NCBI GenBank assembly: GCA_900555715.1
Contig: USMC01000001.1
Span: 107,128 to 171,127 of the forward strand
Source: an uncultured Porphyromonadaceae bacterium
GTDB taxonomy: Bacteria > Bacteroidota > Bacteroidia > Bacteroidales > Muribaculaceae
Length of the DNA stretch: 64,000 nt
Reading direction: 5' to 3'
This document shows, in pieces, positions 1-52,125 of this stretch (the stretch's first letter is position 1; each line of letters begins with the position of its first letter). Both the position numbers and the translations under genes were made by a program. Under the pieces are notes generated by a model, which searched no databases, was not told the origin of the DNA, and saw only the letters and a list, made by a program, of their open reading frames with translations.

Positions 1-73
1 GTGAAATAATATCTTCCGAACAGGCCATTAAACTCGGCTTATCAACGCAAATTTTCAGTAGGAACAACGAACA

Positions 74-1726
74 ATGATTGCTTCGGATTTAACGTGTTTA
101 TGGCAATACTCAAAAGGTTTTAGACTTAGGATTTTAACTACTATAATCCTAAGCTGTTTTGGCGTCATGTTTTCGCTTTTATTCGTGGAGACGATAAAGC
201 GACTATTGGATGATATATCTAACGAAATAGTTTTTTCATTCGTTTCTGCAATACTATATTTGATTGGATTTAAGGGCGGTCAGATAATATGCGAACAGTG
301 TGAAATTTTCTTACGAAGTAGTAATCGAGTAAGACTTGAAAATCATCTCGAATATAATTTATTTTGTAAGTTGACAAATAGTCCTGTTTATCATACTACA
401 AACTTTCATTCCGGTGATAGCATTTACCGATTGTCTTCTGATGCTGGTATCGTTGCAGAAGGCATATCATATACATTGCCCATGCTGATTTATTCGGTTG
501 TTCAGTTGTTTGCCACTTGGATTTATCTGATGACAATGCAACCCGGACTAACTGTTCTTTTGGTACTAATTGGCCCGATTATAATACTTGCAACATACTA
601 TTATACCAAGATTTTATCACCTGTTAGCAAAACTGTAAGAAAACATGGCAGTGAAGTAAATCAATATCTTCAGGAGCATATACAACATAAAGAACTTATT
701 GCAATATTAGAGCAACATAAATTTGTTCAAGACAGTGCAAAAGCAATTCAGAATAGATTTATTGGTTCACTCCTGAAGAAAATTAGAATAACCGTAGGTG
801 CAGATTCTATAACTGAAATTGGATTTGCAATAAGTTATTTATCAATATTTATATGGGGTATTTACTCTATTCCTGATGGTCTTATGACATACGGAACTTT
901 CGTTGTATTCCTTCAACTTGTAGGTCAGTTACAGCGTCCAGTTTTCATGTTTAAGGACCAGTACCCATCATTTATTTCAGCGTTAGCCTCTACTGAACGT
1001 GTTCAAGAGATATTTAATTTGCCAGAAGATTTTAGCAGAAGCAAAAAGATATTGAATGGAGAACTTGGGGTTTGCTTTGAAAACGTAAGTTTTGCTTATC
1101 CGAATAATCAGACACAAGTATTGGAACAATTTAACTGGGATTTCAAACCATGTTCAATAACTGCAATAATGGGAGAAACAGGTGTTGGCAAGAGCACTTT
1201 AGTTAAACTATTATTAGGTTTGCTATATCCAGATAAGGGTACTATTAAAATTTACAGTACGGAAAATGATAGAACCGAATCGGTAAGTAATGATACTCGA
1301 TGTAATTTTATCTATGTGCCACAAGGTAATAATTTACTCAGTGGAAGCATACGGTATAATTTACAATTGGGTAATCCAAATGCTTCTGATGAAGAAATGC
1401 GTCATGCTTTATGGGTGGCTGCCGGAGATTTTGTTTATACCCAACTTCCAGAAGGACTTGATACAGTCATTGGAGAGAGGGGGTTCTCTTTGAGTGAAGG
1501 TCAATCTCAACGTATATCAATTGCCAGAGGTTTATTGAAATCAGGGTCAGTTTTAATACTTGATGAACCGACTTCTGCTCTTGATAAAGAGACTGAGAAA
1601 ACTTTTTATAACCGACTTTTCACTTCGTGTAAAGGGAAAACCATAATAATCATAACACATAGAGATAATGAGACATCTTATTTTAATGACATTCTAACAC
1701 TTAAACCAATCAGAAACAACAAATAA
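74..1726 (+). CDS. ABC transporter, fused permease/ATP-binding protein (type I exporter half-transporter)
   Basis: The N-terminal ~300 aa are hydrophobic and read as multi-TM. Walker A GETGVGKST, ABC signature LSEGQSQRISIARGL and Walker B ILDEPTSALD are all present. There is no C39 peptidase domain. Codon usage is AT-rich, unlike the bulk of the window. Confidence 0.85.
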   Translation: MIASDLTCLWQYSKGFRLRILTTIILSCFGVMFSLLFVETIKRLLDDISNEIVFSFVSAILYLIGFKGGQIICEQCEIFLRSSNRVRLENHLEYNLFCKLTNSPVYHTTNFHSGDSIYRLSSDAGIVAEGISYTLPMLIYSVVQLFATWIYLMTMQPGLTVLLVLIGPIIILATYYYTKILSPVSKTVRKHGSEVNQYLQEHIQHKELIAILEQHKFVQDSAKAIQNRFIGSLLKKIRITVGADSITEIGFAISYLSIFIWGIYSIPDGLMTYGTFVVFLQLVGQLQRPVFMFKDQYPSFISALASTERVQEIFNLPEDFSRSKKILNGELGVCFENVSFAYPNNQTQVLEQFNWDFKPCSITAIMGETGVGKSTLVKLLLGLLYPDKGTIKIYSTENDRTESVSNDTRCNFIYVPQGNNLLSGSIRYNLQLGNPNASDEEMRHALWVAAGDFVYTQLPEGLDTVIGERGFSLSEGQSQRISIARGLLKSGSVLILDEPTSALDKETEKTFYNRLFTSCKGKTIIIITHRDNETSYFNDILTLKPIRNNK

Positions 1727-1737
1727 CAACAACAGAT

Positions 1738-4700
1738 ATGAAAGCAACATTTCTTAAACCAATCGCTTGCTGTGTATCTTTACTTCTAATTGTGTTTTGC
1801 TCGGCATTGCCTGCTAATGCCGGCGTTACGCCCATACAAAGTAGAGATGCCAGTTCCCCGGCGCAGAAAGCCGAGGCTCGTACAATTAGTGGAGTAGTTC
1901 TTGATGCACAGACTAAAGAACCTCTAATCGGTGCCACTATAAAGGATGCCAATTCCAACACTGGCACCACAACAGACTTGGATGGAAAGTATTCCATTAA
2001 GGTTACTCCATCGACAAAGGAACTCACAGTCTCTTTTGTAGGCTATGTTCCAAGCAAGGTAAAATTAGGGACGGACAACATTCTCAATGTTCTCTTAGAC
2101 GCTTCGAGTGAAATGCTCAATGAGGTGGTAGTTACAGGTATCCAATCCATAGAAAGAGGACGTGCCACTGGTGCTTTTTCAATTCTTGATCAGGATGACA
2201 TGAGCAATATTTATTCGACAAGTTTGACAGAAAAACTTGAAGGTGCAGTCCCCGGATTGTTTGTTGATAAGAATAATGACATAACCATACGAGGATTAGG
2301 CTCTTTAAATGCAAGCACAAAGCCTCTTATTGTAGTAGATGGGTTCCCTTTAGAAAGTTCTGAGCTTAACCTAAATCCTAATGATATTGAACAAATCAGT
2401 ATTCTTAAAGACGCTGCATCTGCTTCGATTTGGGGTATTCGTGCAGCAAACGGCGTTATTGTGGTGACCACTAAAAAAGGCAATGGTAATGGTCGAGTAA
2501 ATGTTAATTACTCCGGTACTGTTACATCAAGCGCAAAGCCTAAATGGTCAGATTTGCATATATTATCCTCAGACCAATATGTCAGTGCTAATTTTGCCAA
2601 TATTCTTGGTCAAGGAATCAGTTCATCCGCTTACGGAGGTCTTAATGAATTGGAAAAAATCTATCAATCGTATGATAATGGCATTTATTCACTTGACGAA
2701 GCATGGAATCAAGTGAATCTGCTTGGTCGCTTCAATAATGCCAAACAAATTTCCGATAATTTTTATCGACATGCTTTCACGCAACAACACAATGTTTCGT
2801 TGTCTTCAAATAGCGAGCGTGTCTCTACTTACGCATCGTTAAGTTTTGACCAAAACAAGATGCAACTACGCGGCAATGAGTATAATAAGTTTAATCTATT
2901 GGTAAATAATGACTTCAGGCTGCATCGTACATTTACAGTGACTCTTGGCATTAGGGGAACATATCAAAATTCAAAAAATAATGGTGTTGATATGACCGGA
3001 TATGAGCCTTGGATGAGAATTCTTAATGATGATGGTTCATATTACAATGAATATAATGGAATCTCCGAATCATGGGCCGAGGAATGTTATGCTTTAGGTA
3101 TGCGCGACTGGCATAAGAATTCTTTGGAAATCATGAGAATGAATGATAATCAAAGCAAGGAGTATAATCTTTCATCATCTTTAAGATTGGTTTGGAAACC
3201 AATTTCAGGACTGACGCTGTCATCACAAGGCACATATGAGTTTGGAAATACTCAAGGGATTCAGTTCTTCTCACAGGATCATTATAAAACTCGCAACTTG
3301 ACTAATCGCTTTACAGAAGTGTCCGTAGAAGATGGACATCCTGTAGGCATTGTCGCAAATCATCTGCCTACCAGCGGAGGTATTAAAAGCCTCAATGAAA
3401 CCCATCTTCAGTCTTATTCAATAAGAAACATGATTTCTTACAATAATGCTTTCAAGGATTTTGAGTATCGCGCTATGGTAGGCAATGAGATTTATTCTCT
3501 TGAAGGTAATCAATATTCCAACTGGCTTTGGGGATTTGACCCGGATCTTCTGACCTACCAAAGTGTGGATTTAGCCTCTTTACAAAGTGGAGTGTATGGT
3601 TACAACGGAAGAATTCAAACCCTTGATGAAGATGAGTATTCTACATCATACATAGAAAGACTTGAAAGATATGTTTCTTGGTTTGGAACTGCTAATATCA
3701 GTTATGCCAACAAGTATGACCTCTTTGGAAGCATTCGTTTGGATCAAACTAACCTGCTAACCAACTCAAGCAAGTTTAGAAATAATCCTTCGTGGTCAGT
3801 AGGTGCTAAATGGAACCTCAATAAAGAGACCTTCATGCATTCTCCATTGATTGATAATTTGGCACTGAGAGTATCATATGGCTTAACAGGAAATATTGAC
3901 AAGCGAACTGGTCCAGATATTGTTGGACAAGCATCTTCCGATTATAATATTCCGAACTTAAACTATATTATGATTACCAATCCGGCAAATCCGTTGCTTG
4001 GCTGGGAAAAGACCTATAGTTGGAATGTCGGTGTTGATTATATGTTCTTCAATGGTCGTATTTCAGGTGCGTTTGATTTCTATCATAAAAAGTCTAAGGG
4101 GCTATTAGCAGATGTTGACGTTGACCCTACAATCGGCTGGAGTAAGTTCTTCAAAAATTCCGCGACTGTATGCAATACCGGTTTTGATTGGTCTATACAC
4201 GGACGTATTCTTACTGATACACCTGTAAAGTGGGATGTTACATTGAATCTATCGTATAATAAAAATAAGGTAACAGAGATGAATTATACTCCAAGTAGAA
4301 AGGGGGCGTGCAAAGGGAATCCTATGCAAGGTTATCCTATTGGAAGTATTGCAGTACATAGATACGGAGGTCTCGATGAATTTGGTGACCCCACATTTAT
4401 GAGAAAAGGTGATGATACTAAGTACCATTACTCTGAATTAAATTCTCTTGGTCTTGATGACCTTGAATATGTAGGTTCAACAAATCCTCCAGTATTTGGC
4501 AGCTTATCCAGTTTATTGCGGTATCGTGATTTCTCTTTAAGTTTCATGTTGACATATCGTTTTGGCAGCAAACTCAGATTACCAGCACCAAAGAATACAG
4601 CTACCGGCATGTATAGTGAATGGTTTGGAGAGGAATACCGTTGGATCGAAGGTGCCAACAATGACAACAAATGGGTTCCCAGTCAGTACACAGAAAGTCC

Positions 4701-4995
4701 TTGGTCGCCGAAAAACCGTGATGAGTGTTTGCTCTTCAGCGATAAGATGGTAGATAGTGGAGATGCAATCTATTTTAGAAGCATTAAATTTATGTATGAC
4801 GCATCAAGAATCCTCAATAAAATTGGCATCAAAGGTGGAAGCGTAAGCATCGGTGGTGAAAACCTCTGTTTCTGGGCCAAAAATAAATATAATCTCGATC
4901 CCGACCAGATTTCTGTAAGTGGTGAGGTTTATGATACATATTGCACATTTGGCAAGCAACCTCGACTTGTAGTTGGTCTTAACTTGAACTTCTAA
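1738..4995 (+). CDS. SusC/RagA-family TonB-linked outer membrane protein
   Basis: 1085 aa with a signal peptide. The N-terminal carboxypeptidase-regulatory-like segment reads ISGVVLDAQTKEPLIGATI...TDLDGKYSI. Plug motifs DITIRGLGS and ILKDAASASIWGIRAANGVIVVTTKKG are present. A long barrel ends in a terminal F. The gene sits immediately upstream of a SusD-like gene. Confidence 0.9.
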   Translation: MKATFLKPIACCVSLLLIVFCSALPANAGVTPIQSRDASSPAQKAEARTISGVVLDAQTKEPLIGATIKDANSNTGTTTDLDGKYSIKVTPSTKELTVSFVGYVPSKVKLGTDNILNVLLDASSEMLNEVVVTGIQSIERGRATGAFSILDQDDMSNIYSTSLTEKLEGAVPGLFVDKNNDITIRGLGSLNASTKPLIVVDGFPLESSELNLNPNDIEQISILKDAASASIWGIRAANGVIVVTTKKGNGNGRVNVNYSGTVTSSAKPKWSDLHILSSDQYVSANFANILGQGISSSAYGGLNELEKIYQSYDNGIYSLDEAWNQVNLLGRFNNAKQISDNFYRHAFTQQHNVSLSSNSERVSTYASLSFDQNKMQLRGNEYNKFNLLVNNDFRLHRTFTVTLGIRGTYQNSKNNGVDMTGYEPWMRILNDDGSYYNEYNGISESWAEECYALGMRDWHKNSLEIMRMNDNQSKEYNLSSSLRLVWKPISGLTLSSQGTYEFGNTQGIQFFSQDHYKTRNLTNRFTEVSVEDGHPVGIVANHLPTSGGIKSLNETHLQSYSIRNMISYNNAFKDFEYRAMVGNEIYSLEGNQYSNWLWGFDPDLLTYQSVDLASLQSGVYGYNGRIQTLDEDEYSTSYIERLERYVSWFGTANISYANKYDLFGSIRLDQTNLLTNSSKFRNNPSWSVGAKWNLNKETFMHSPLIDNLALRVSYGLTGNIDKRTGPDIVGQASSDYNIPNLNYIMITNPANPLLGWEKTYSWNVGVDYMFFNGRISGAFDFYHKKSKGLLADVDVDPTIGWSKFFKNSATVCNTGFDWSIHGRILTDTPVKWDVTLNLSYNKNKVTEMNYTPSRKGACKGNPMQGYPIGSIAVHRYGGLDEFGDPTFMRKGDDTKYHYSELNSLGLDDLEYVGSTNPPVFGSLSSLLRYRDFSLSFMLTYRFGSKLRLPAPKNTATGMYSEWFGEEYRWIEGANNDNKWVPSQYTESPWSPKNRDECLLFSDKMVDSGDAIYFRSIKFMYDASRILNKIGIKGGSVSIGGENLCFWAKNKYNLDPDQISVSGEVYDTYCTFGKQPRLVVGLNLNF

Positions 4996-5007
4996 ATATC
5001 AGATAAA

Positions 5008-6405
5008 ATGAAACATTACATCATATGTATGATAGTAGCTCTATTAGGGCTAACCTCATGTCAAGATTTTCTTGACGAGACTCCAAAAGGAACGCTTATT
5101 CCGAAAACCGTAAATGATTTCGGAATGATGCTTGACAACTACGACTATGACAACTGCATCGGTTACGGACAGTTTATCACATTGATGATGACAGATGACG
5201 TGACGATTCCTGAAGATAAATCTTGGAAGTATTCCTCGTGGGGCCTCAATGGATATACGTGGGAAGATTTTATCTATAGCGCATCGGAGGATGATGATTG
5301 CTACAATAATTTCTACCATGTAATCTATATCTGTAATTATATCCTAAATAACTTGGCAGACGCACCGGATGGAACAAAATTTACACGCGAGTATGTTGAA
5401 GGTGCGGCGCGTTTTCATAGAGCGTTTGCCTATTTCTCTCTTGTCAACCTCTATGCAAAGCATTATGACGTTTCATCAGCGTCAACGGACCTCGGTGTCC
5501 CTCTGATACTCGATGCTGACCCCGAATTACAACTTGGCAGATCAACAGTTCAGGAGGTGTATAATCAGATAGATAAAGATTTATCTATCGCGAAGGATTT
5601 ACTTAATGCAGAAATACCAGAGTATTCATTTAGGCCCAATAAAACGGCTGTTTTAGCACTGTTAGCTCGTGTAAGACTGTATCAAGGTAATTATGAAGAA
5701 TGTGCCGACTACGCATCTAAAGCAATGGCGATATGCCCTAAGCCATACGATTTTAACAATTACGCTCTTGACGATGTTAATCCTGATTTTGGAATAAATG
5801 GATTCCCGTTTTATGGATGGGAAGTCCAAGATGTAATCTGTTATAAAGGGTCTGGATATGGTCCTAACGATGACCAAGATTATAATCTCTCAGATGAACT
5901 GATTCAACTTTTCAATAAGGAAACGGATTTACGTTGGAATGTATTTGTGACTACTTATCCAATTTTTGCGGGAGAAGAACCCGAAGGAGATAGTCCGAGG
6001 ACCGCTTTTACGTTCCCAAATAACAGAGGTCTAAATGTTGGAGAGTTATATTTAACGGGGGCTGAAGCATTTGCTCGTTTGAATAGAATAGATGATGCAC
6101 TTTCTGCTCTGAACGAATTGGGGGTTAAACGTCATAAAACCGGTACATATTCTGATGTGACAGAAAGAGATCCTAATAAACTCCTATCACTCATCCTTGA
6201 TGAAAGGAGGCGTGAATGTATTCAACAGGGTATAAGATGGTTTGACCTCAAAAGACTGAATAAGGAACCTCGTTTTAGAAAAACCATAACCCATGAATTA
6301 GAGGGAGAAACTTACAGCTTGGAACCTGATGATAATCATTATGTTTTGCCAATACCGTTATTTGTTATAAATAATAACCCATTGGTAGAGCAAAATCCCA
6401 GATAA
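5008..6405 (+). CDS. SusD/RagB-family nutrient-binding outer membrane lipoprotein
   Basis: Lipoprotein signal LLGLTSC. Its 465-aa size and position 13 bp after the SusC stop fit a SusD partner. The sequence is SusD-like, with a TPR-like helical fold region (YNQIDKDLSIAKDLL, LLARVRLYQGNYEECADYASKAM). Confidence 0.8.
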   Translation: MKHYIICMIVALLGLTSCQDFLDETPKGTLIPKTVNDFGMMLDNYDYDNCIGYGQFITLMMTDDVTIPEDKSWKYSSWGLNGYTWEDFIYSASEDDDCYNNFYHVIYICNYILNNLADAPDGTKFTREYVEGAARFHRAFAYFSLVNLYAKHYDVSSASTDLGVPLILDADPELQLGRSTVQEVYNQIDKDLSIAKDLLNAEIPEYSFRPNKTAVLALLARVRLYQGNYEECADYASKAMAICPKPYDFNNYALDDVNPDFGINGFPFYGWEVQDVICYKGSGYGPNDDQDYNLSDELIQLFNKETDLRWNVFVTTYPIFAGEEPEGDSPRTAFTFPNNRGLNVGELYLTGAEAFARLNRIDDALSALNELGVKRHKTGTYSDVTERDPNKLLSLILDERRRECIQQGIRWFDLKRLNKEPRFRKTITHELEGETYSLEPDDNHYVLPIPLFVINNNPLVEQNPR

Positions 6406-6480
6406 GTAACATAAAAGCCGAGGGAACAAATATTCAATTATTATTGAATTATGTTTCTTCGGCTTAAAACACAAGTAGCT

Positions 6481-7044
6481 ATGAGATATTTGATTTTAAT
6501 ATTATCGTGTGTAGTTATTTCTTCCATTGCGTTTTCAAACGAAAATTATTCTGCGGAATATCAAGGAGTGAAAATTTTGACCAATGATGGATATGAACCT
6601 AATGACACAAGTGTAATCTTGGAAATAATTGATACTTGTGCATACCTTCATTATTCGGAAAGAACAGATACTTTCTTGTTCCGCACGAATTTGAATAATT
6701 GGAAGATATATCGTGGACCCTCACGAGCGTCTAATGCTAACAAAAGGATGAAGATATCCAAAGACTCCATTATACTACAAGTCGATAATCACCAAGGTAA
6801 TACTCTATTTTACAATCGAGTTGGACTTAATGGAAATATCGAGAATAAAGTCCAGTGTATGGAATGTAATGGAGAAGGTGTTATATACTGCTACAAATGT
6901 GGTGGAACAGGTAACGTATTACCAAACCCAAAGGGAGGCCCGGATGCGGCTGTAGGAATTTGCCCAAAGTGTCATGGCATCAAATCGCTCAAAAAAGCTA
7001 TTTGTCAAAAATGCAGTGGTTCAGGACAAGTAATAATTCCGTAA
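6481..7044 (+). CDS. secreted protein with C-terminal DnaJ-type CR zinc-finger repeats (4x CxxCxG)
   Basis: The start was moved to the Met of MRYLILILSCVVISSIAFS, which gives a signal peptide. The C-terminus carries CMECNGEG, CYKCGGTG, CPKCHG and CQKCSGSG, i.e. four CxxCxG(xG) units as in the DnaJ cysteine-rich domain. Composition is AT-rich. The gene is followed by a hairpin terminator. Confidence 0.55.
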   Translation: MRYLILILSCVVISSIAFSNENYSAEYQGVKILTNDGYEPNDTSVILEIIDTCAYLHYSERTDTFLFRTNLNNWKIYRGPSRASNANKRMKISKDSIILQVDNHQGNTLFYNRVGLNGNIENKVQCMECNGEGVIYCYKCGGTGNVLPNPKGGPDAAVGICPKCHGIKSLKKAICQKCSGSGQVIIP

Positions 7045-7057
7045 TAGGAAGACTTAA

Positions 7058-7085
7058 ACGCCGCCTTTTGGCGGCCGAAATTTTT
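7058..7085 (+). terminator. rho-independent terminator (GCCGCC-tttt-GGCGGC hairpin followed by T-run)
   Basis: The GC stem gccgcc/ggcggc has a 4-nt loop and is followed by ...aaattttt. It lies 14 nt after the stop codon of the zinc-finger protein gene. It also marks the compositional boundary of the AT-rich block. Confidence 0.6.
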
Positions 7086-7157
7086 AGCAAAATCAAGCGG
7101 GGCGACTTCATCACGAGGTCGCTCCGCTATGTCTATATTACGACTTGGCTAATATCG

Positions 7158-7523
7158 TTAAAAATGGGTGTAAAGACCTGTCACGTCTGTGAAAATGTCC
7201 TCCAGCATATCGCAATAGACACCTTCAATTTTCTCAATGTCCTTTGTCGATACCTCAAAGGTCTTGTGGTTCATAGACTGGCGGTAAAACCGCACATTGT
7301 AGAGGTCTGCGCCCTCGTCATAGATGATTTCAAGGCGGTTCGCCGATGTCTTGTTTCGGCTGAGGCTCATTCTTAACCCGTTGCCGAGGTTGATGAAGTC
7401 GTGGCTTCCCGTCATTGCGACGAAGCGGTGTCCTCCGATTTGTTGGAGTATAGTTTTTGCAATCAGATTGTCCATAATTATGTCATTTAGAGTTGTTGAT
7501 TTTCTTGTTAAGCCATTCATCAC
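7158..7523 (-). CDS. hypothetical protein (mobile-element associated)
   Basis: 121-aa ORF in the same orientation as the PcfJ/PcfK-like genes downstream, with intermediate GC. No motif was recognised. Confidence 0.35.
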   Translation of the reverse strand: MMNGLTRKSTTLNDIIMDNLIAKTILQQIGGHRFVAMTGSHDFINLGNGLRMSLSRNKTSANRLEIIYDEGADLYNVRFYRQSMNHKTFEVSTKDIEKIEGVYCDMLEDIFTDVTGLYTHF

Positions 7524-7707
7524 GGTGTTGCCTGCACTCTTTGATGGTGGGGGCTACGCAGGAGAATAATTCTCCGTCGGTGTGGCGATAGTCGTATTGG
7601 TAGAGCTTTTTTCGTCTTGTACCATATCCGGTGTAGAACACCTCGTATCGTTCAGTGCCGGGAGTAGTGGTTGTGCTTACTCCGTTGACGGTCATTCTCG
7701 TTGTCAT
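7483..7707 (-). CDS. hypothetical small protein
   Basis: 74-aa ORF in series with the neighbouring minus-strand genes. It overlaps the 3' gene by ~40 bp. Coding status is uncertain. Confidence 0.25.
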   Translation of the reverse strand: MTTRMTVNGVSTTTTPGTERYEVFYTGYGTRRKKLYQYDYRHTDGELFSCVAPTIKECRQHRDEWLNKKINNSK

Positions 7708-7719
7708 AGTATTGCGGTT

Positions 7720-7977
7720 TTAGTATTCTACAATCAGTATCCTATATTCAAATGTAATATCGGGGTTGGTTATCTTTCTTTGTTTCAGCCATAGGTGGTG
7801 GCTCCCGTAGCCATAGACAAAGTATCGGTCAAGGTCGTACTTGTCGGTAAAGTCGGCTACTATCTGCCGTAGCGTTTCCTCGTTGTCGGCATAGAGAATG
7901 TGATTTACAAACTCTATGATGATTTCGGCTATCTTGTCATCAAAGATGATAGTGGGGTGTTCAAATGTTACGTTCAT
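7720..7977 (-). CDS. hypothetical small protein
   Basis: 85-aa ORF immediately downstream of the PcfJ-like gene on the same strand. Confidence 0.3.
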   Translation of the reverse strand: MNVTFEHPTIIFDDKIAEIIIEFVNHILYADNEETLRQIVADFTDKYDLDRYFVYGYGSHHLWLKQRKITNPDITFEYRILIVEY

Positions 7978-8029
7978 AATCAGTGGGTTTTATGACCTGC
8001 GCCATTGCTGACGCAGGTTGTGTTAGACA

Positions 8030-9340
8030 TTAGGCGGTCATTCTCTCCTTGATTAGTCGGGCGTTTGAGTTCACAAGGTCGATAATGCGGTCGTGGTACT
8101 CGGTATCCTTGTTATATTTGCCGTGGCACTGCACAACTTTGAGTGTCTGCAAGTCAACCTCTACCGTCTCTATTATGGTATCGCCAATCCTTGCCGACAA
8201 TACCAGCGTGTTCTTCTTAAGGTAGTAGGACGATGAGAATACGCAGATGTGCTGTGTGTTACCCTCTTGGCAGTATTCCTCTATGCTCTCAAGCACCTTC
8301 ACCGATATTTCATTGTCGGAGATTACCAGACCGAAGAACTTGGATTTTAGAGCCTTGAACTGTTCCTCCTGCTCTTTCTCTCGGAGCAGTCTTTCCTCGG
8401 CTCTCCTACGCTCGGCGTCCTCACGCTCCCGTCTGCGTCTGTCCTCTATCATTCGGCTCAATCTGTCGTGCGCCTCTATGAAATCTTCTGGGCAGATGTT
8501 CTTGGGATTGCGGAGGTCTTTGCCGATGTTCTTCAGCATCCGCAGATAGTCGCACCACATTCCGATGTTGTTGATATGATAGCGGTGGCGTTTGGCGATA
8601 AGGTACGATGCCCAAAATTCATCCGCATTGCAGGGATTGGAGAGAAAGTATTTCATTTCCTCAATCTCTCCGGCTTTCATCAGCGTCTCCATTCTTGGGT
8701 CGGCAAGCAGAGCCTTGAAAAGTCTGACGGGGGATACTCCGTAGAAATCGCCCTTGAAGCCGTTGCGTTGGAGTTGGGGTATTACCTTAATTCTCGGATA
8801 TACCTCACTCCATGCGACAACATCATCATACAGTGGGTTGTGCGGGCGTATCTCCATGTCGCTCCAATAAGACCAGCAGTCGCAGTAATGGAAAGTAAAT
8901 CCACGGAGCAATGCCATATCGGTAACTTTGCCTTCCGGAGAAATCCACCTTTGCACGACCTCCTGACAATAGAGTTGTCTGACCTCCCCCTTACGGCTTT
9001 CGCTCGTTATCAGCGACACACGGATTACTTGAAAACCCTTGTGTACTGTTATGACACTGAAATATGTGGTTTCCTTATGGGTGCGTTTGCGGGTGTCCTT
9101 CACTTTCAGTTCAGTACCGCAGTGAGGGCATTTGCAACCGGCAATAGTGTCGCAAAGGTTGCCTTTCTCTCCCTTCCAAACGTGTCCGCAGTCTGAACAT
9201 GTCATTGTTCCGCTATTTGTGCGATAGGCGAAATGCTCAATGCAGTGGCGGTATGCCCATTTCTCTTGTGTCGCGGTTATGGGGCGCAGTGTGGCGGATA
9301 GTGCTGCCACTTGCTTTTGTAATGCTGTCTTGGGTTTCAT
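8030..9340 (-). CDS. PcfJ-like conjugative-element protein
   Basis: 436 aa. N-terminal zinc-ribbon cysteine pairs (CSDCGHVW...CKCPHCG) and a central Arg/Glu-rich coiled segment (EDRRRREREDAERRRAEERLLREKEQEEQ) are present. Overall it resembles PcfJ-like proteins of Bacteroidales conjugative plasmids and transposons. It lies immediately upstream of a PcfK-like gene, the canonical pairing. Confidence 0.65.
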   Translation of the reverse strand: MKPKTALQKQVAALSATLRPITATQEKWAYRHCIEHFAYRTNSGTMTCSDCGHVWKGEKGNLCDTIAGCKCPHCGTELKVKDTRKRTHKETTYFSVITVHKGFQVIRVSLITSESRKGEVRQLYCQEVVQRWISPEGKVTDMALLRGFTFHYCDCWSYWSDMEIRPHNPLYDDVVAWSEVYPRIKVIPQLQRNGFKGDFYGVSPVRLFKALLADPRMETLMKAGEIEEMKYFLSNPCNADEFWASYLIAKRHRYHINNIGMWCDYLRMLKNIGKDLRNPKNICPEDFIEAHDRLSRMIEDRRRREREDAERRRAEERLLREKEQEEQFKALKSKFFGLVISDNEISVKVLESIEEYCQEGNTQHICVFSSSYYLKKNTLVLSARIGDTIIETVEVDLQTLKVVQCHGKYNKDTEYHDRIIDLVNSNARLIKERMTA

Positions 9341-9351
9341 AGCCGTAATGA

Positions 9352-9786
9352 TTAGAAGTCGAATAGACTGGGTTGTTCAACTTGGGTTTTCTTTTCACTC
9401 ACCTTCTTGGATTGCGTGGGTCTGCGCATTTTAGCCATTTCCTCATCACGGAGTCTGTTGATGGCGTCCTGCCGTGCCTGTTCCTTTTCTTCCTCGGTGA
9501 GTTCTACCGTATGGTTCACTACCACTTGGCAGTTGATAGGCTTGCCGACCTCTATCTCATTTTCTTCATAGTAATGGACTGCCATTCCGAAGATTTCATC
9601 GTCTGCGAAGCCGTTGCAACCGCTTTTCTGCACTTGGTTGATGATAAAAGTACAGCAGTCGGATACTGACTTTGATGGATTGGCATACTTGACAGCGAAC
9701 AGAGCGTCATTCTCCGCCATAGCTTCAAGATAAGCCTTGATTGTGTCTTGGAACGATTGTGTCCCTTTCATCGTGTTGCTTGCCAT
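9352..9786 (-). CDS. PcfK-like protein
   Basis: 144-aa acidic protein ending in a Lys-rich tail. It resembles PcfK-like family members, which are found next to PcfJ in Bacteroidales mobile elements. Confidence 0.6.
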   Translation of the reverse strand: MASNTMKGTQSFQDTIKAYLEAMAENDALFAVKYANPSKSVSDCCTFIINQVQKSGCNGFADDEIFGMAVHYYEENEIEVGKPINCQVVVNHTVELTEEEKEQARQDAINRLRDEEMAKMRRPTQSKKVSEKKTQVEQPSLFDF

Positions 9787-9799
9787 AGTCGTAAATGTT

Positions 9800-10033
9800 T
9801 TAGAGTGTATTCATTATCCAATAGATTATCCCTAATGCGGAGAGGATTGAGATTATCCACCCGATGCCTCGGAATATTCTTTTAATCAGCCAACCGATAG
9901 TCAGACCAACGATTGCTCCGATGACAATCAGTATCACTTTTGCCACCTTTGCAACCGCCTTGCTTATGCGGTATTGATAGGAGGATTGGTGAGCTTGCCT
10001 TGACCTATTTATATGTTGTTCTGTGGCTTTCAT
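9800..10033 (-). CDS. small predicted membrane protein
   Basis: 77 aa with two hydrophobic helices (VILIVIGAIVGLTIGWLI and IGWIISILSALGIIYWI). It is in series with the PcfK-like gene. Confidence 0.3.
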   Translation of the reverse strand: MKATEQHINRSRQAHQSSYQYRISKAVAKVAKVILIVIGAIVGLTIGWLIKRIFRGIGWIISILSALGIIYWIMNTL

Positions 10034-10086
10034 ATCGGTGGGGGCTTTTTTTTAACCTCATGCGTCCAAAGACAGTGTGGTTGTTT

Positions 10087-10228
10087 GAGTTGCTTGACAC
10101 CTGAAAGGCGTGTGGCACAAAAGAAGGGATGTTCACGGCAAGACGGAAAAATACTACTCGCAGAGTGGAGATTTTTCCGGATCGACGCGAATGTCCCTTT
10201 GCCACACGTTTATTTTGGCAAGCAACTC
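10087..10228. repeat. long imperfect inverted repeat (arms ~10087-10123 and ~10197-10228)
   Basis: The left arm gagttgcttgacacctgaaaggcgtgtggcacaaaag pairs with the reverse complement of ctttgccacacgtttattttggcaagcaactc. Both ends match exactly (GAGTTGCTTG/CAAGCAACTC and CGTGTGGCA/TGCCACACG), around a ~75-nt central loop. Confidence 0.6.
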
Positions 10229-10395
10229 CAACAGACCCACAAGACTCAGGTACGCATCAGATGAAAATGGCCTCCCCGATATACAGGAAAGCCACAGGAC
10301 GACATTGAAATCAAAAATGCCGGACTTTACTGAACGGCATCATATTGAAAAATCTGGGGAAACAAGAAAATGGCAGAAAGAGAAAAGAAAGGAGA

Positions 10396-10866
10396 GTGCA
10401 ATCCCGGAACAGGATAATGTCCGGCATTTGTTCAGCCGGAGAGCAGCGCAGGCGCAGGGCAAATGACGGTCTTTATCCCCGTTGATTGAATTACCTGCGG
10501 GACATGGAATGACTGTGTTAAGTCGTAAGATGTGAACAACCGTCCCCGGTTGCACATCTTTCGGCGACACGGATATTCGATGTCCAGCATCGCAGTGTGG
10601 CAATGTAGAAATCCGGAACCGTCCTGTCAAGGACAACAATCAGGCAATAAGAAAAATAATGGAGTATGCAATCCCGGAACAGGATAATGTCCGGCATTTG
10701 TTCAAGCCGGAGAGCAGCGCAGGCGCAGGGCAAATGACGGTCTTTATCCCCGTGGATTGAATTACCTGCAGGACATGGAATGACCGTGTTCAGTCGTAAG
10801 ATGCGGACAACCGTCTCCGGTTGCACATCTTCCGGCGACACGGCTATTCGATGTCCAGCATCGCAG
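10396..10866. repeat. two direct tandem copies of a ~200-nt non-coding unit (10396-10595 and 10667-10866, ~95% identical, 71-nt spacer)
   Basis: The copies were aligned by eye. There are about 10 substitutions plus one 1-nt indel (ttcagccgg versus ttcaagccgg). Each unit contains the local hairpins ccggaac...gtccgg and caaccg-tctc-cggttg. The minus-strand ORFs across the units diverge by a frameshift and by mostly non-synonymous changes, so they are not coding. Confidence 0.85.
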
Positions 10867-11173
10867 CGAAGTCCAGCGAAGTATATTTCAGATTCAGTCA
10901 TCTGACATTATTAAGTATCAAAAATTATGAGTACTTTTGTGTGCAAAATTACGAATTGGAGTTACGGCTACTTAATAGTGACCCCGATTATGGGGCTGCG
11001 AGAGGTGTACTTTCCGGTGTTGTCATAGGTAAAAACAGGCAAATTACGATAGTTAAAAATCCTTAACACAAGCCAAAAATCTAAAATTCAATTTACTCGG
11101 CTTTCCGTCAACTTCCACAAAAGTACACGATTAGTACCCACGTCTCTCCAAACCCCTCTGAAAATCACCGAGT

Positions 11174-11208
11174 TTGCCCAAATAAGAAAAAATTTGTAAT
11201 TTTGTGGA
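11174..11208 (+). promoter_or_regulatory. candidate Bacteroidetes sigma-A promoter for leuS (-33 TTTG ... -7 TAATTTTG)
   Basis: gagTTTGccc and TAATTTTG are separated by ~21 nt, matching the Bacteroides TTTG/TAnnTTTG consensus. They lie ~40 nt upstream of the leuS ATG. Confidence 0.35.
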
Positions 11209-11249
11209 TTAATAGATATTTAAAGCATCCACAGAAATCAGTCACAGCT

Positions 11250-14024
11250 ATGGAATATAATCATAAAGAAATCGAGCCGCGCGTCCGGCAGTACTGGAAA
11301 GACAAAGACATCTACCGTGTGGACATCGATCCGTCGCGTCCGAAATATTATGTACTCGACATGTTTCCCTATCCATCGGGCGCCGGTCTGCACGTCGGTC
11401 ATCCCTTAGGTTATATTTCAAGCGATATCTTCGCCCGCTACAAACGTCTGCGCGGGTTTAACGTCCTACACCCGATGGGCTACGACGCCTACGGTCTTCC
11501 CGCCGAACAATATGCCATCCAGACCGGGCAGCACCCCGAAGTGACGACGCGCATCAATGTGGAGCGCTACGGCAAGCAGCTCGACAATATAGGATTGAGC
11601 TTTGACTGGAGCCGCCAGATACGCACCTGCGATCCGGAGTTCTATAAATGGACGCAGTGGGCTTTCCTGCGCATGTTCGAAAGCTATTACGACACCGCCG
11701 CCGACCGCGCCATGCCTGTTACCGGGCTCGTGGCTCACTTTGAGAAAGAAGGCAGCGCCGGAGTTCATGCCGCCTGCGGCAAGGAACTGCATTTCACGGC
11801 TGCCGAATGGAATGCGATGAGCGCCAAGGAGAAGAGCGATGTGCTGATGAACTACCGTCTTGCCTATCTCGGCAACTCGATGGTGAACTGGTGTCCGAAG
11901 CTCGGCACAGTGCTTGCCAACGACGAGGTGAGCGAAGGCGTCTCTGTCCGCGGAGGCTACCCTGTGGAGCAGAAAGAGATGTGGCAGTGGTTCCTGCGTG
12001 TGTCGGCGTATGCCGAGCGTCTTCTCAAAGGTCTTGACCGCATCGACTGGTCCGACTCCATCAAAGAGACACAGCGCAACTGGATAGGCCGCAGCGAAGG
12101 CGCCGAGATGCATTTCCGCATCGACGGTCGCGACGACATCGATCTTGAAATATTCACCACCCGCGCCGACACAGTCTTCGGCGTGACATTCATGGTTCTC
12201 GCACCGGAGAGCAAATACGTCGCTCAGCTTACGACTCCGGAGCAGCGTGCCGCTGTGGACGCATATCTCGAGTCCATCAAGCACCGCACCGAACGCGAGC
12301 GCATGATAGACAAGAAGGTGACAGGCGTTTTCAGCGGTTCGTATGCCATCAATCCGCTGTCGGGCAAGAAGGTTCCGGTATGGATCAGCGATTATGTCCT
12401 CGCAGGCTACGGCACCGGCGCCATCATGGCAGTGCCGGCGCATGACAGCCGCGACTACGCTTTCGCCCGCCATTTCGACCTGCCGGTGATTCCTCTTATC
12501 GAAGGCGCCGATGTGAGTGAGGCTTCGTTTGATGCCAAGGAGGGCAAGATGATAAATTCGGCCGGTCCGGAGCTGAACCTCAACGGCATGGATGTGAAAG
12601 ACGCCATCGCCGCCGCCAAGAAATATATCGAGAAAGCAGGGATAGGACGCGTGAAAGTGAACTATCGCCTCCGCGACGCCATTTTCAGCCGCCAGCGCTA
12701 CTGGGGCGAGCCCATACCCATCTGCTACGTCGACGGCATCCCGCAGCCTTACGAAAATCTGCCCCTCGAACTGCCCGAAATCGACAAATATTTGCCTACC
12801 GAGACGGGCGAGCCGCCGCTGGGACGTGCTAAAGACTGGCATACTCCCGAAGGCTACCCGCTCGAACTCAATACCATGCCCGGCTTCGCCGGATCGTCGG
12901 CATACTACCTGCGGTATATGGATCCGCACAACGACGGTGCTCTTGTGTCGAAGGAAGCCAACGGCTACTGGCGCAGCGTCGACCTCTACGTCGGCGGCAG
13001 CGAGCATGCCACAGGGCATCTCATCTACAGCCGGTTCTGGAACAAGTTCCTTTTCGACTACGGCTATGTGGTCGAGGACGAGCCTTTCCGCAAGCTCATC
13101 AACCAGGGCATGATTCAGGGTCGCACAAGCTTTGTCTACCGTATCAAGGACACCAATACTTTTGTCACTGCCGGAAAGAAAGATCAGTACGACACCACAC
13201 CCATACGCGTCGACATCAACATGGTCGACAACGATGTGCTCGACCAGGATGCTTTCCGCGCCTGGCGCCCCGAGTTTGCTGACGCGCAGTTTGTCTGCGA
13301 GGACGACGGACGCTATGTATGCGGCTGGGCGGTTGAGAAGATGTCGAAGTCGATGTTCAACGTCGTCAATCCCGACGACATCGTCGAACGCTACGGCGCC
13401 GATACTCTCCGCCTCTACGAAATGTTCCTCGGTCCTATCGAGCAGAGCAAACCATGGAACACGCACGGCATCGACGGTGTCTACCGTTTCCTCAAGAAAT
13501 TCTGGAGCCTCTATTACAAGGGCGACACTCTCCTTGTCGACGACAGCAAGCCGTCGGAAGAGAGCCTGCGCAGCCTCCACAAGCTCATCAGGAAGGTGAC
13601 TGCCGACATCGAGGCGTTCTCGTTCAACACGTCTGTTGCGGCGTTTATGATATGTGTCAACGAACTCGCACAGCAGAAATGCAGCTCGCGCGAAGTTCTT
13701 GAGCCGCTTGTCGTTCTTCTTGCGCCTTTCGCTCCCCACATCGCCGAGGAGCTGTGGCAGAAGGCTCTCGGTTACGACACGAGTGTCGTCGATGCCGCAT
13801 GGCCCGAGTACAACGAAGACTACCTCAAGGAGTCGACAGTGACGATGGCTGTGTCGTTCAACGGCAAGGCACGTTTCAACATCAGTGTTCCGGCAGATGC
13901 TTCCGCCGAAGTGGCGCAGGAGACAGCGCTTGCCGATCCTGCCGCAGCGAAGTGGCTCGACGGCAAGACCGTGCGCAAGGTCATCGTGGTGCCCGGTAAA
14001 ATCGTCAACATTGTCGTGGGCTGA
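11250..14024 (+). CDS. leuS: leucine--tRNA ligase
   Basis: HIGH motif [21 protein letters not shown] motif [10 protein letters not shown], ~925 aa. The start was set at [17 protein letters not shown]. Confidence 0.95.
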
Positions 14025-14088
14025 TGTTTAACAGATATTATAGAGCATTCTACGGCAATAAGCCAGGCAATATAGCGTTATTTTTCTG

Positions 14089-14685
14089 ATGAAACAGATT
14101 ATATTCGCCACAGGCAATGCCAATAAGCTCCGCGAGTTGCGCCAGATCCTCGGTCCGTCGTACGAAGTGAAAGGTCTTGCCGACATAGGCTGCCACGACG
14201 ACATCCCGGAGACCGCCGACACCTTCGAAGGCAACGCCCTGCAAAAAGCACAGTGGGTGAAGGATCGCTACGGATACGACTGCATAGCGGAAGACGCCGG
14301 TCTGGAAGTCGACGCTCTCGGCGGTGCTCCCGGCGTGTTCAGCGCCCGCTATGCCGGTCCGGGTCATGATGCCGGAGCCAATAACAGGCTGCTTCTGGAG
14401 CGCATGGAAGGCGTAACTGACCGTACGGCACGATTCCGCGCCGTTCTTGTTCTTCTACGCGACAGCGACGGCGCTCACTTCTTCGAAGGAAAAATCGAAG
14501 GAGACATTCTCGAAGCGCCGCGCGGCGACGGCGGTTTCGGCTACGACCCTCTGTTCGTGCCGAAAGGCTGGACAAAGACTTTTGCCGAGGCATCGGCGGA
14601 AGAAAAGAATGCTGTCAGTCACCGCGGGCAGGCTGTGGCGGCTCTGCGCAATTTCATCGCTAAGGAAAACGACAACAAGCCATAA
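14089..14685 (+). CDS. rdgB: non-canonical purine NTP pyrophosphatase (dITP/XTP pyrophosphatase, RdgB/Ham1 family)
   Basis: IIFATGNANKLRE..., FEGNALQKAQ, FGYDPLFVP and ...EEKNAVSHRGQA are Ham1-family signatures. Confidence 0.9.
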   Translation: MKQIIFATGNANKLRELRQILGPSYEVKGLADIGCHDDIPETADTFEGNALQKAQWVKDRYGYDCIAEDAGLEVDALGGAPGVFSARYAGPGHDAGANNRLLLERMEGVTDRTARFRAVLVLLRDSDGAHFFEGKIEGDILEAPRGDGGFGYDPLFVPKGWTKTFAEASAEEKNAVSHRGQAVAALRNFIAKENDNKP

Positions 14686-14691
14686 TAAAGT

Positions 14692-38838: not shown

Positions 38839-38915
38839 TGCTGTATATATTGCTGAGCCGCAAAAATACAGCAACGGTACAGGCGGCGGACCCTTAATTG
38901 CCGCCGTGAGGAAAT

Positions 38916-48100: not shown

Positions 48101-48499
48101 TTCTTCACCGGTTCGGCTCTGCGCAACGTCACTCTGCGCGACAAGCTTGACATCAAGATGAACAGCTACATGCAGAACCTCAATATCTACCAGTGGACCT
48201 ACGACCATGCGTTCAATCCTGCCAAAGGCAACTTCGATGCTGAATATCCTCTGCCGGGCATTACCGACGCCGATATCTCCAACAACAACCAGCCGTCGAC
48301 CTACTGGCTCCGCGATGCTTCCTACCTGCGCCTGCGTAGCGTAGAACTCGGATGGTCGTTCAAGTACGGCCGCATCTATGCAAGCGGTCTGAACCTCCTT
48401 TGCTTCAGCGGTTTCAAAATCTGGGACCCCGAGCTTGCAAACCCCTCCAAGTATCCGCTGCAGAAGACCGTCAACCTCGGCGTACAGTTCAATCTCTAA
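45131..48499 (+). CDS. SusC/RagA-family TonB-linked outer membrane protein with N-terminal STN signalling domain
   Basis: The STN domain reads LKVSDAPISSVLSQIEQQTGYLFVYN. CarbopepD_reg reads SGTVKDGKDGEPLIGAVVRVQG. Plug motifs and a barrel ending ...LGVQFNL are present. Confidence 0.9.
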   Translation: MSLSIHQTRLLLFMLLAFAATGLRAQNKPVTLKVSDAPISSVLSQIEQQTGYLFVYNEADVDIKRNVSFDYVKTPTSKILQALFPKETNTEWKLKGRNITITKKATAQPKTKGGKRPVSGTVKDGKDGEPLIGAVVRVQGDERNAVMVDIDGNFTINVEDKDGKAPVLEISYVGYNQREVPIGDLSYIDVNMTGAHNTLDEVIVVGSGTQKKISVTGSISTVTGNELKMPTTTLSRALGGRIAGVITRQTSGEPGTGADFYIRGISTFGGKATPLILLDDVEISSSDLDFIPAENIESFTVLKDASATAIYGARGANGVMIITTKGGEFNTKTKINVNVESAVNFISNSPEFVGAVDFMNTYNWVNAARNPGSEPMYSQVKIERTAAGVNQYLYPDVNWKNELLRDVAWRQRANLNVSGGGNKAKYYMSLDVQHENGLQKADQFKSWNNNQQVYNYTFQNNISYKLTPTTNLSLNMNAQIRQKSNPDFGSETTFAWLRNNCNPVDFPVYYPAGPDGERRYGSKRVSSGWLLNPKSEISRTHYQENTSTVNSVVKLDQQLDFITKGLKLNAWVNWKTYAKRYIQQSIQPYMWYYDVVDGVDPDIEFEPTIQNPDANQFINEAGPTRQNESTFEFQANLNWARRFGAHDFTAMVMYRMREYRGAKVLPNRNQGLSGRITYNYDYRYLFEFNFGYNGTERLAKGHRFGFFPAASIGWVVSNEAFWEPIKKTVSNLKIRGSYGLVGSDDLVGPNGTYFLYRDLIYQNNLNFWSWVTGDGDNSYTGTGPLIRAYALPDIEWEKSRKLDIGLDITLWNRMNMTFEYFRENRYDILMERASWPWALGYGMAIPWANIGKARNEGVEFSLNYNQPINKDLSISVQANLTYAQNKYIYKDEPNYKYPWQQVTGTPLENYSRLGYIAEGLFKSEEEIANSPEQQLGSGKVMVGDIKYRDLNGDGKINSDDKTLISKYGINPRLMYGFGATINYKKWDFGFFFTGSALRNVTLRDKLDIKMNSYMQNLNIYQWTYDHAFNPAKGNFDAEYPLPGITDADISNNNQPSTYWLRDASYLRLRSVELGWSFKYGRIYASGLNLLCFSGFKIWDPELANPSKYPLQKTVNLGVQFNL

Positions 48500-48530
48500 T
48501 CTCTCCAAACACCTGTAATAAGCACATTAT

Positions 48531-50540: not shown

Positions 50541-50559
50541 TTCTCAAAGCTAATCAACT

Positions 50560-52005: not shown

Positions 52006-52125
52006 TCTGGTTGGTTCCGGAATGAATTCATCTCCGCAAAAGGAGATGGATTCTTCCGGAGTTACAGCTTTGAACAGAATAATATCAGTCAACAAAATAC
52101 AGTTTACTTTAATTTCTAATTTCTT

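Follow-up and report, generated by a model that had tools for sequence, protein, structure and literature searches.

The first 7 kb of the 64,000-nucleotide stretch analysed here (the window; GenBank assembly GCA_900555715.1, contig USMC01000001.1, positions 107,128 to 171,127, from an uncultured Porphyromonadaceae bacterium that GTDB places in the Muribaculaceae) carry genes for an ATP-binding cassette (ABC) exporter, a SusC/SusD pair and a secreted cysteine-rich protein, a combination that can be set beside several described systems. Systems for thioether-containing peptides that are ribosomally synthesized and then post-translationally modified (RiPPs), such as those of CteB/SCIFF (5WGG), PapB/freyrasin (NF047865) and the CXXX-repeat maturases (TIGR04115), combine a short precursor whose leader is conserved and whose core is a Cys repeat, a radical S-adenosylmethionine (rSAM) enzyme that bears a CX3CX2C motif and a Cys-rich C-terminal region, and a dedicated exporter; their leader peptidases are of the C39 or subtilisin type, and the acceptor residues in freyrasin are Asp. 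The rSAM enzyme QhpD, the protease QhpE and the ABC exporter QhpF likewise bring together a thioether-forming rSAM/SPASM protein, a serine protease and an exporter without a C39 domain, all acting on a Cys-rich polypeptide, which in that case is an enzyme subunit and not a free peptide. Methanobactin operons join a RiPP and its exporter to a TonB-dependent receptor, MbnT, and siderophore clusters follow the same logic of a secreted product with its own importer.

Among transporters of the SusC/SusD type, the closest solved relative of the pair in the window is ButCD of Bacteroides fragilis (8YPT/8YPU), which is chromosomal and conserved; RagAB of Porphyromonas gingivalis is more distant. ButCD imports the ubiquitin-like toxin BfUbb and confers toxin sensitivity, and its locus contains no carbohydrate-active enzymes (CAZymes) or polysaccharide genes and adjoins a ZnMc metalloprotease; its authors, who state that the native substrate is unknown, argued that it is not a glycan and proposed a protein or peptide cargo (PMC11467351). 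RiPP and RiPP-like clusters with transport genes have been found in a defined variable island of the integrative and conjugative elements (ICEs) of P. gingivalis, where graspetide, thiopeptide-like and lanthipeptide-like clusters and type-I-secretion-like exporters were reported and no SusCD-linked rSAM cluster was described in the text searched (bioRxiv 10.64898/2026.08.04.741601). The main text of a paper on RiPP mining in Bacteroidales mentions neither SusC/SusD nor Clp (PMC10352776). In the open-access literature that we searched, a SusCD-linked rSAM RiPP cluster, its leader family and its ClpP-like protease were undescribed, which is not proof of absence.

Compared with these systems, positions 1-7056 of the window are, on well-supported evidence from gene content and synteny, best read as the distal, transport half of a 12.8-kb cassette of the Cys-rich, radical-SAM-modified RiPP type. 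The proximal half was read from contig ERZ28575586 scaffold_266 (loci L004 and L011), which gives the true upstream of position 1 because window 1-17044 is 99.99% identical to it, host flank included. In order, the cassette comprises a tyrosine integrase (400 aa), a first rSAM enzyme, rSAM-1 (393 aa), a CxxCxG lipoprotein (119 aa), a small secreted protein (142 aa), a precursor (60 aa), a second rSAM enzyme, rSAM-2 (362 aa), a ClpP-like protease (177 aa), the ABC exporter, SusC, SusD and a secreted 197-aa protein. All of these genes lie on one strand, those from rSAM-2 onwards are spaced by −17, −4, 11, 12 and 45 bp, and a single terminator follows; rSAM-2 through the 197-aa gene would accordingly be transcribed as one tight operon. 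The initial annotation had treated the four genes from the exporter onwards as a unit. They are instead the 3′ half of an operon of about 11 genes, with the maturases, precursor and protease all 5′ of position 1, and the integrase that was to be sought upstream was found 4.5 kb 5′ of position 1. The cassette is indeed cut by the window edge at its 5′ end, as had been stated, except that the cut falls inside the ClpP-like gene and not before the ABC gene. The last 25 codons and stop of this gene, which encodes a putative leader peptidase, occupy positions 1-77 on the forward strand, and positions 3-77 translate to EIISSEQAIKLGLSTQIFSRNNEQ*, the C-terminus of the protease encoded at L011 9471-10004.

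The cargo is very probably a RiPP, judged from the genes that surround a 60-aa open reading frame (ORF) between the two rSAM genes, which reads MKMNLEALAALEAKLAQYSSVNGPIAEHMSQNTNTCDSCYTNSTCKGTCRGTCGGSCNGR. More than 30 distinct precursors from related loci share a leader of about 30 aa, MKMNxxALKALExKLAEYSKxNGxIAEH, followed by hypervariable cores with CxxxC repeats and 4-9 Cys; because the leader is conserved and the core varies across these versions, we take the 60-aa ORF to be the precursor peptide, the CxxxC-repeat core of the window cassette being TCDSCYTNSTCKGTCRGTCGGSCNGR. Up to three precursors occur in tandem at a locus, with a common leader and differing cores, for example in a Fretibacterium metagenome-assembled genome (MAG; L045 1723-2440) and in Selenomonadales (L036-L051). 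Cores are hypervariable in Selenomonadales, but those of the mobile Bacteroidales cassettes hardly vary. The window cassette and that of L032 have a 100% identical peptide core while their proteins are 53-78% identical, and an identical core despite such protein divergence would imply a strongly constrained interaction partner. A precursor with leader and variable core thus stands beside its candidate enzymes, with the rSAMs, ClpP-like protease and ABC exporter in one operon and in synteny across phyla, and the earlier suggestion, an export-linked system for a peptide or another non-glycan substrate, pointed in the right direction. The precursor gene is often uncalled, or a 32-aa antisense ORF is called instead.

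Among NCBIfam models, the best matches of both maturases, over the full profile length, are to PapB (NF047865) and to the CXXX-repeat maturases (TIGR04115). The scores, 122.8 and 95.0 bits for rSAM-1 and 89.8 and 71.9 bits for rSAM-2, lie far below the respective cut-offs of 340 and 350, and neither enzyme is a member of either family. Among solved structures, rSAM-1 is closest to CteB, the SCIFF maturase that forms thioethers (5WGG, 4.8e-18, residues 20-330). In the maturases, the CX3CX2C motif (CNLNCSYC) and the C-terminal cysteines C255, C273, C305, C308, C314, C317, C336 and C347 are invariant. The Pfam SPASM model gave no match to the rSAMs at E<0.01. The protease matched CLP_protease with 61.7 bits, and ISSPGG, VNSAAI and YVHS, which, read against ClpP motifs, would be oxyanion region, nucleophilic Ser and catalytic His respectively, are invariant in five diverged homologues. 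Relative to the thioether RiPP systems, the cassette therefore differs in having two paralogous maturases, a ClpP-like leader peptidase, putative acceptors that are rich in Thr, Ser and Gly and, in Bacteroidales, SusCD genes joined to the operon. The search with the upstream rSAM enzymes also matched TIGR03906, and the trio of rSAM, protease and exporter resembles that of Qhp, from which the cassette departs in its protease family and in containing no dehydrogenase genes. The likeness to methanobactin and siderophore operons stops at operon logic, and metal binding by the cassette peptide is not part of it; the biosynthetic enzymes are unrelated, and the cassette has neither a periplasmic binding protein nor an inner-membrane importer.

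Domain and family profiles bore out the identities first given to the four genes inside the window, all of which lie on the forward strand. The ABC half-transporter of exporter type (550 aa, 74-1726), whose start codon is overlapped by 4 bp by the end of the ClpP-like gene, has ABC_membrane at residues 20-290 and ABC_tran at 350-501; no C39 peptidase domain was matched in it, the membrane domain beginning at residue 20, and all named equivalog families scored below cut-off. Its stop codon is followed after 11 bp by the gene for a SusC/RagA-type TonB-dependent outer-membrane transporter (1085 aa, 1738-4995), which matched TIGR04056 with 576 bits against a cut-off of 368 as well as the signature TIGR04057, and in which no STN domain was matched. 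The SusD/RagB-type lipoprotein lid (465 aa, 5008-6405) matched SusD-like_3 (112 bits) and SusD_RagB (55 bits), both above cut-off; membership in the SusC/RagA and SusD/RagB families is thus given by the family hidden Markov models. The last gene (6451-7044) encodes the 197-aa protein, in which a signal peptide and an all-beta N-domain (residues ~30-125) precede a C-terminal part with four CxxCxG motifs. The Cys and Gly of these motifs are invariant in its family, and the C-terminal domain is presumably DnaJ-CR-like and Zn-binding, although its match to DnaJ_CXXCXGXG (PF00684) reached 23.8 bits against a cut-off of 32.7.

We next consider what kind of SusCD this is. The best PDB match of SusC is ButC (8YPU/8YPT, 4.6e-65) and that of SusD is ButD (8YPT, 5.3e-48; next match 4e-17, a lead of more than 100 bits), the ButD match being moderate, at 167 bits in two matched stretches. 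Being closest to ButC/ButD and lying in a locus without CAZymes, the pair is of a ButCD-like, non-glycan kind as far as sequence relationship tells. It differs from ButCD, which stands beside a Zn-metalloprotease, in that it is mobile, co-operonic with peptide biosynthesis and export genes, and followed by a CxxCxG protein. Homologues of SusD make up an unbroken clade that extends to 44% identity. Two relatives outside the cassettes, at 57% and 46%, belong to modules of extracytoplasmic function (ECF) sigma factor, FecR, SusC and SusD genes followed by thioredoxin/AhpC/DsbD-type redoxins, and at 38% a relative has an M16 peptidase gene directly after it; the position right after susD is held by a Cys-based domain protein in the cassette and by redoxin genes in the relatives. 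Tandem modules of ECF sigma/FecR/SusC/SusD with thioredoxin/redoxin genes, some with DUF4843/PKD_2, were also seen on Bacteroidota chromosomes, without CAZymes (L089-L091).

Distribution was assessed by scanning one genome per species with an rSAM-1 alignment, which yielded 49 loci, and by a tblastn matrix over them. The core of rSAM, precursor, ClpP-like protease and ABC exporter was found in Bacteroidales (Prevotella, Muribaculaceae, Barnesiella, Bacteroidaceae and Paramuribaculum), in Selenomonadales/Quinella and in Fretibacterium. Loci that resemble the core at a greater distance are present in Akkermansia, Lentisphaerae/Victivallales, Thermoguttaceae, Chlorobiaceae and Melainabacteria; most of them gave a weak ABC match and no precursor, and a few are without a ClpP-like or ABC match. 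SusC and SusD were found in RiPP loci only in Bacteroidales cassettes, in six lineages, 3′ of the ABC gene and each time with integrase or mobile-element genes beside the cassette (lineages including L019, L026, L027, L028, L032 and L086). SusC identity to the window is 99, 92, 87, 68 and 66% in the five lineages that were measured, the sixth (L086-88) having been recognised by gene order. The cassettes sit on at least three mobile backbones, namely an ICE hot spot, a mobilisable element (integrase, helix-turn-helix gene, MobC, relaxase, integrase) and the L086-88 context, in whose contigs conjugation genes, an IS21 element or another integrase come after the cassette. The recurrence beside mobile elements that the initial annotation had proposed as a check was thus observed. 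In every Bacteroidales context, the GC content of the cassette is 33-40% against 45-59% in the flanks; the conserved synteny is with rSAM peptide-maturation genes, and the arrangement that would have spoken for an ordinary polysaccharide locus, CAZymes in synteny at native GC, did not appear. A Barnesiella MAG carries an integrase and the RiPP core alone, with no SusCD, between dnaG/cmk/ispH and a two-component system. Because of this close relative and of several chromosomal Bacteroidales clusters that also lack SusCD, we regard the integrase-linked cassette as itself an integrative islet and SusCD as an accessory module. Human gut metagenomes commonly contain the Bacteroidales version, which is carried by ICEs and mobilisable elements or forms an integrase-only islet.

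Composition sets the segment apart from its surroundings. GC is 0.379 at window 1-7148, with GC at third codon positions (GC3) of 0.26-0.34 in its genes, compared with 0.466 (GC3 0.55-0.61) in the ICE arm at 7149-11204 and 0.543 in the host DNA at 11205-64000, where GC3 of leuS and porZ is 0.64-0.72. None of 92 sliding 7-kb windows of the host part falls below 0.519, and the tetranucleotide profiles of cassette and host are anticorrelated (r = −0.21), so that the lower GC first noted for the initial ~7 kb was borne out both by windowed GC and by tetranucleotide deviation. An abrupt switch had been placed at a terminator at 7058-7085. Alignment with ICEs that have an empty site (L118, L142, L153, L164 and L108) puts the cassette/backbone junction at 7056/7057 (L011 16983/16984), directly 5′ of that hairpin, which made the boundary right to a few bases and the assignment of the hairpin to the cassette wrong. 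The GC-rich, terminator-like element (forward strand, 7060-7085) consists of the hairpin GCCGCCTTTTGGCGGC at 7060-7075 and a T-run; it is part of the ICE backbone, lying 3′ of the lysozyme gene in ICEs without the cassette, and now also ends the cassette operon. The insertion spans about 12.8 kb (L011 4173-16983) and includes the integrase; its right end, at 7045-7056, lies 12 bp past the stop codon of the 197-aa gene, and homology to the empty-site ICEs resumes at 7056/7057.

The 10-mer CTAATATCGT, found at L011 4182-4191 and at window 7149-7158 (L011 17076), was considered as a target-site duplication and rejected. Its right copy sits 93 bp inside the backbone and is present too in the empty-site ICE L118, its left copy is not conserved in L012, L015 and L016, and the 27-mer predicted for the empty site was not found in metagenome contigs. 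The same 10-mer recurs 90 bp 3′ of susD in a Prevotella cassette variant (L027 20015). Rfam and tRNA scans of the window and L011 gave no matches.

The surrounding element is a Bacteroidales ICE, with a Tra operon (TraM, TraN/DUF4138, TraO, TraQ), a PcfJ/PcfK arm and copies at several chromosomal sites. The claim that the AT-rich segment is horizontally acquired and adjoins conjugative genes proved sound, the cassette lying inside the ICE. Genes 5′ of the integrase run in one direction and encode TraM, TraN, TraO, an unnamed 115-aa protein, TraP, TraQ and lysozyme, and the insertion occupies the interval between the lysozyme gene and a gene for a 105-aa protein, a cargo hot spot of this ICE. 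When metagenomes were scanned with the 105-aa protein, 80 related ICEs came up (L095-L174), one of which has the cassette; the lysozyme gene is on the same contig in 32 of the 80, its distance from the 105-aa gene being between 125 bp, where the site is empty, and 7 kb, where it holds other cargo, and beyond the lysozyme gene lie mostly TraQ, TraP and TraO. No cassette-free ICE of the exact lineage was found, all contigs with an identical 105-aa protein carrying the cassette, and empty sites occur only in relatives at 77-96% protein identity. Inserts at the hot spot run from 0 to 7 kb across elements, for example ~7 kb (L141) and ~3.3-3.5 kb (L134, L136), and a 74%-identical homologue of the integrase lies a few kb away in L130. 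The same ICE occupies at least five chromosomal sites, beside the thi operon, leuS, guaA, a MatE gene and a polysaccharide synthase gene.

The reading that we find somewhat probable is that of a mobile RiPP cassette that makes, exports and re-imports a thioether peptide. As homology would have it, the two rSAM enzymes would place thioether cross-links on the core, and the ClpP-like protease, given its conserved adjacency and conserved Ser and His, would take off the ~30-aa leader. The C39-less ABC half-transporter could then carry the peptide across the inner membrane, and the mature peptide, once released, would be caught at the surface and taken back into the periplasm of cassette-bearing cells by the TonB-dependent SusC/SusD. 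The secreted CxxCxG proteins may, speculatively, be periplasmic or surface partners of the peptide. Re-import is the tentative step of the scheme, suggested by the operon fusion and by the context of the SusD clade at somewhat less than even confidence; candidate purposes are a signal, metal or nutrient scavenging, or a kin-restricted benefit. That the whole amounts to a portable produce-export-recapture system, with a thioether RiPP secreted and then retaken through its co-operonic SusCD, is possible, at somewhat below even odds.

Several observations weigh against re-import of a thioether peptide. The link between peptide and SusCD is one of gene order, and the thioether chemistry is predicted from homology to families whose cut-offs the maturases miss by far, with no Pfam SPASM match. 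The cassette contains no inner-membrane importer, cytoplasmic receptor, regulator or TonB/ExbBD, and the peptide would still need an outward route across the outer membrane. SusCD is absent from all non-Bacteroidota clusters, from the Bacteroidales loci L024, L031, L033, L034, L035 and L040, and from the close relative L029, whose precursor is 100% identical; for the core system, SusCD is dispensable. In addition, a 60%-identical SusD belongs to a SusCD pair that stands alone in the chromosome next to a convergent GH31 gene, because of which the association of the ButCD-like clade with peptide or thiol chemistry can be called suggestive and not uniform.

Some of these observations would also be expected if the segment held two unrelated cargo modules, a RiPP cluster that ends at the ABC gene and an independent SusCD importer of peptide or protein nutrients with its CxxCxG protein, an arrangement that we consider unlikely. 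It would accommodate the absence of SusCD from most clusters of the family and from L029, the proposal that the ButCD-like clade is a protein or peptide nutrient system, the 60%-identical pair that is alone in its chromosome and a 34%-identical homologue of the 197-aa protein beside tatA/tatC with no RiPP cluster. However, the 11 bp between the ABC stop and the susC start leave no room for a promoter, the genes share one strand and a single terminator, the ABC-SusC-SusD junction is kept at 66-68% SusC identity on differing mobile backbones, and all SusCD pairs read in cassette lineages (L019-21, L026-28, L032 and L086-88) follow RiPP genes, contexts having been read for a minority of the SusD homologues at 61-88% identity and the one relative read at 60% standing alone. 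To our knowledge, all characterised SusC/RagA transporters are TonB-driven importers, and we know of no antimicrobial activity for this RiPP family; both points count against the improbable alternative that SusCD and the CxxCxG proteins serve producer immunity, sequestration or outer-membrane release of a toxic bacteriocin-like RiPP and not import. Clusters in other diderms and in Bacteroidales evidently manage without SusCD, and ButCD confers toxin sensitivity, not protection (PMC11467351). What speaks for such a role is that mobile elements of gut Bacteroidales often bear toxin and immunity cargo, that Porphyromonas ICEs carry RiPP islands (bioRxiv 10.64898/2026.08.04.741601), that no other obvious immunity gene is present in the cassette, and that the core shared in full with L032 suggests a constrained target.

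Annotation pipelines would call the four genes a fragment of a polysaccharide utilisation locus (PUL), and the canonical, adjacent susC and susD are what the cassette shares with a classical PUL of the Sus paradigm, and all that it shares. We found no glycoside hydrolase, polysaccharide lyase, sulfatase or regulator in window 1-7085, as the initial annotation had held, no CAZyme or sulfatase over 10 kb of upstream sequence or in the diverged cassette lineages examined, and no PUL-type regulator (hybrid two-component system, SusR, or ECF-sigma/anti-sigma with STN) in the cassette or in those lineages. Surface glycan-binding proteins are likewise missing from the cassette, and the pair lies within a mobile peptide-maturation operon. 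The nearest solved relative is a non-glycan transporter, and the glycan-type SusCD locus of the host (45131-53715) differs in its native GC and its neighbours of glycan-binding type. An ordinary PUL that lost or was parted from its enzymes has a negligible chance of being right, since synteny with rSAM, precursor, protease and ABC genes in effect rules it out, in line with the first impression that this is no classical PUL.

The ingredients of the cassette are known, namely Cys-rich RiPPs made by rSAM enzymes, RiPP cargo on Bacteroidales ICEs (from a preprint) and non-glycan SusCD; the operonic fusion of RiPP genes and SusCD is what the literature searched does not describe. The native substrates of non-glycan SusCD systems in Bacteroidota are almost all unknown, and the co-operonic 60-aa precursor is a concrete candidate, so that SusCD and precursor together could help to work out how such transporters recognise peptides. 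If re-import occurs, this would be the first SusCD with a genetically defined peptide as its cognate substrate, and gut Bacteroidales would possess a peptide circuit borne on mobile elements (a signal, kin-restricted uptake or a metallophore-like scavenger) with CxxCxG proteins as periplasmic partners. With an outer-membrane receptor of its own, the system would be self-sufficient in any Bacteroidales host that it enters, and the Bacteroidales cassette could influence strain competition or communication in the gut. The precursor family, with its rSAMs and ClpP-like protease, spans several phyla of gut and rumen anaerobes.

The 197-aa protein was examined further by structure prediction and homologue searches. 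An AlphaFold2 model from the single sequence was unusable (predicted local distance difference test, pLDDT, 42), and one from an eight-sequence alignment gave pLDDT 85-91 for the N-domain, the Cys-rich domain staying low. Foldseek against the PDB returned weak matches to beta-barrels of LolA-like and lipocalin-like kind (TM 0.26-0.33, best E 2.4e-3), which hint, and do no more than hint, at a small ligand-binding barrel. A word-based search retrieved only the protein's own cluster, and diverged homologues came from a full HMMER scan. One, 47% identical, is in the equivalent terminal position after susD in lineage L086-88; another, 34% identical, lies directly 3′ of tatA and tatC (L085 557-2395), outside any RiPP cluster, so that the family is not confined to RiPP cassettes. 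The 142-aa secreted protein showed no similarity to the N-domain by BLASTP or hhalign that would make it a paralogue. The 119-aa lipoprotein (MDKRKARTTF...CAGCNGRGGWKI, L011 7236-7595, equal to L004 859-1218) also has four CxxCxG motifs, and its Cys-rich domain is weakly similar to that of the 197-aa protein (E 0.001). On most contigs, gene callers pass over this lipoprotein in favour of a 56-aa ORF that lies in a different frame (L011 7447-7617). In the collection, 588 blocks index the 197-aa protein, many public contigs carry identical proteins, and the precomputed annotation of its cluster representative, P0181, lists the Pfam accession PF27659.1.

Beyond the cassette, the right arm of the ICE is encoded on the reverse strand. 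At 7158-9786 it comprises the genes for the 105-aa protein (7158-7475), a DUF3873 protein (7483-7707), an 85-aa protein (7720-7977), PcfJ (8030-9340) and PcfK (9352-9786). The remainder up to the ICE/host junction (9800-11204) includes genes for a 77-aa membrane protein (9800-10033) and a 127-aa protein (10518-10901), and homology to ICE copies at other chromosomal sites ends at 11204, 45 bp before the host leuS (11250). One contig (JGI 3300014964 Ga0134538_1001143, L014) is identical to the window up to 7225 (L014 17152) and then continues into a gene for a 761-aa TonB-dependent receptor; this divergence from the DUF3873-PcfJ arm may reflect either a rearrangement of the ICE or a chimeric assembly. 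In the host part, an ORF of 787 aa on the reverse strand (36511-38874) has no Pfam match at E<1e-5 and adjoins a GC dip at 34-36 kb (0.47-0.49). The host also carries its own SusC (45131-48499) and SusD (48531-50540) at native GC, followed within the locus at 45131-53715 by proteins with BT_3987-like/F5_F8 type C and CHB_HEX_C/Fn3-associated domains; it looks like an ordinary glycan-type system, in contrast to the pair in the cassette.

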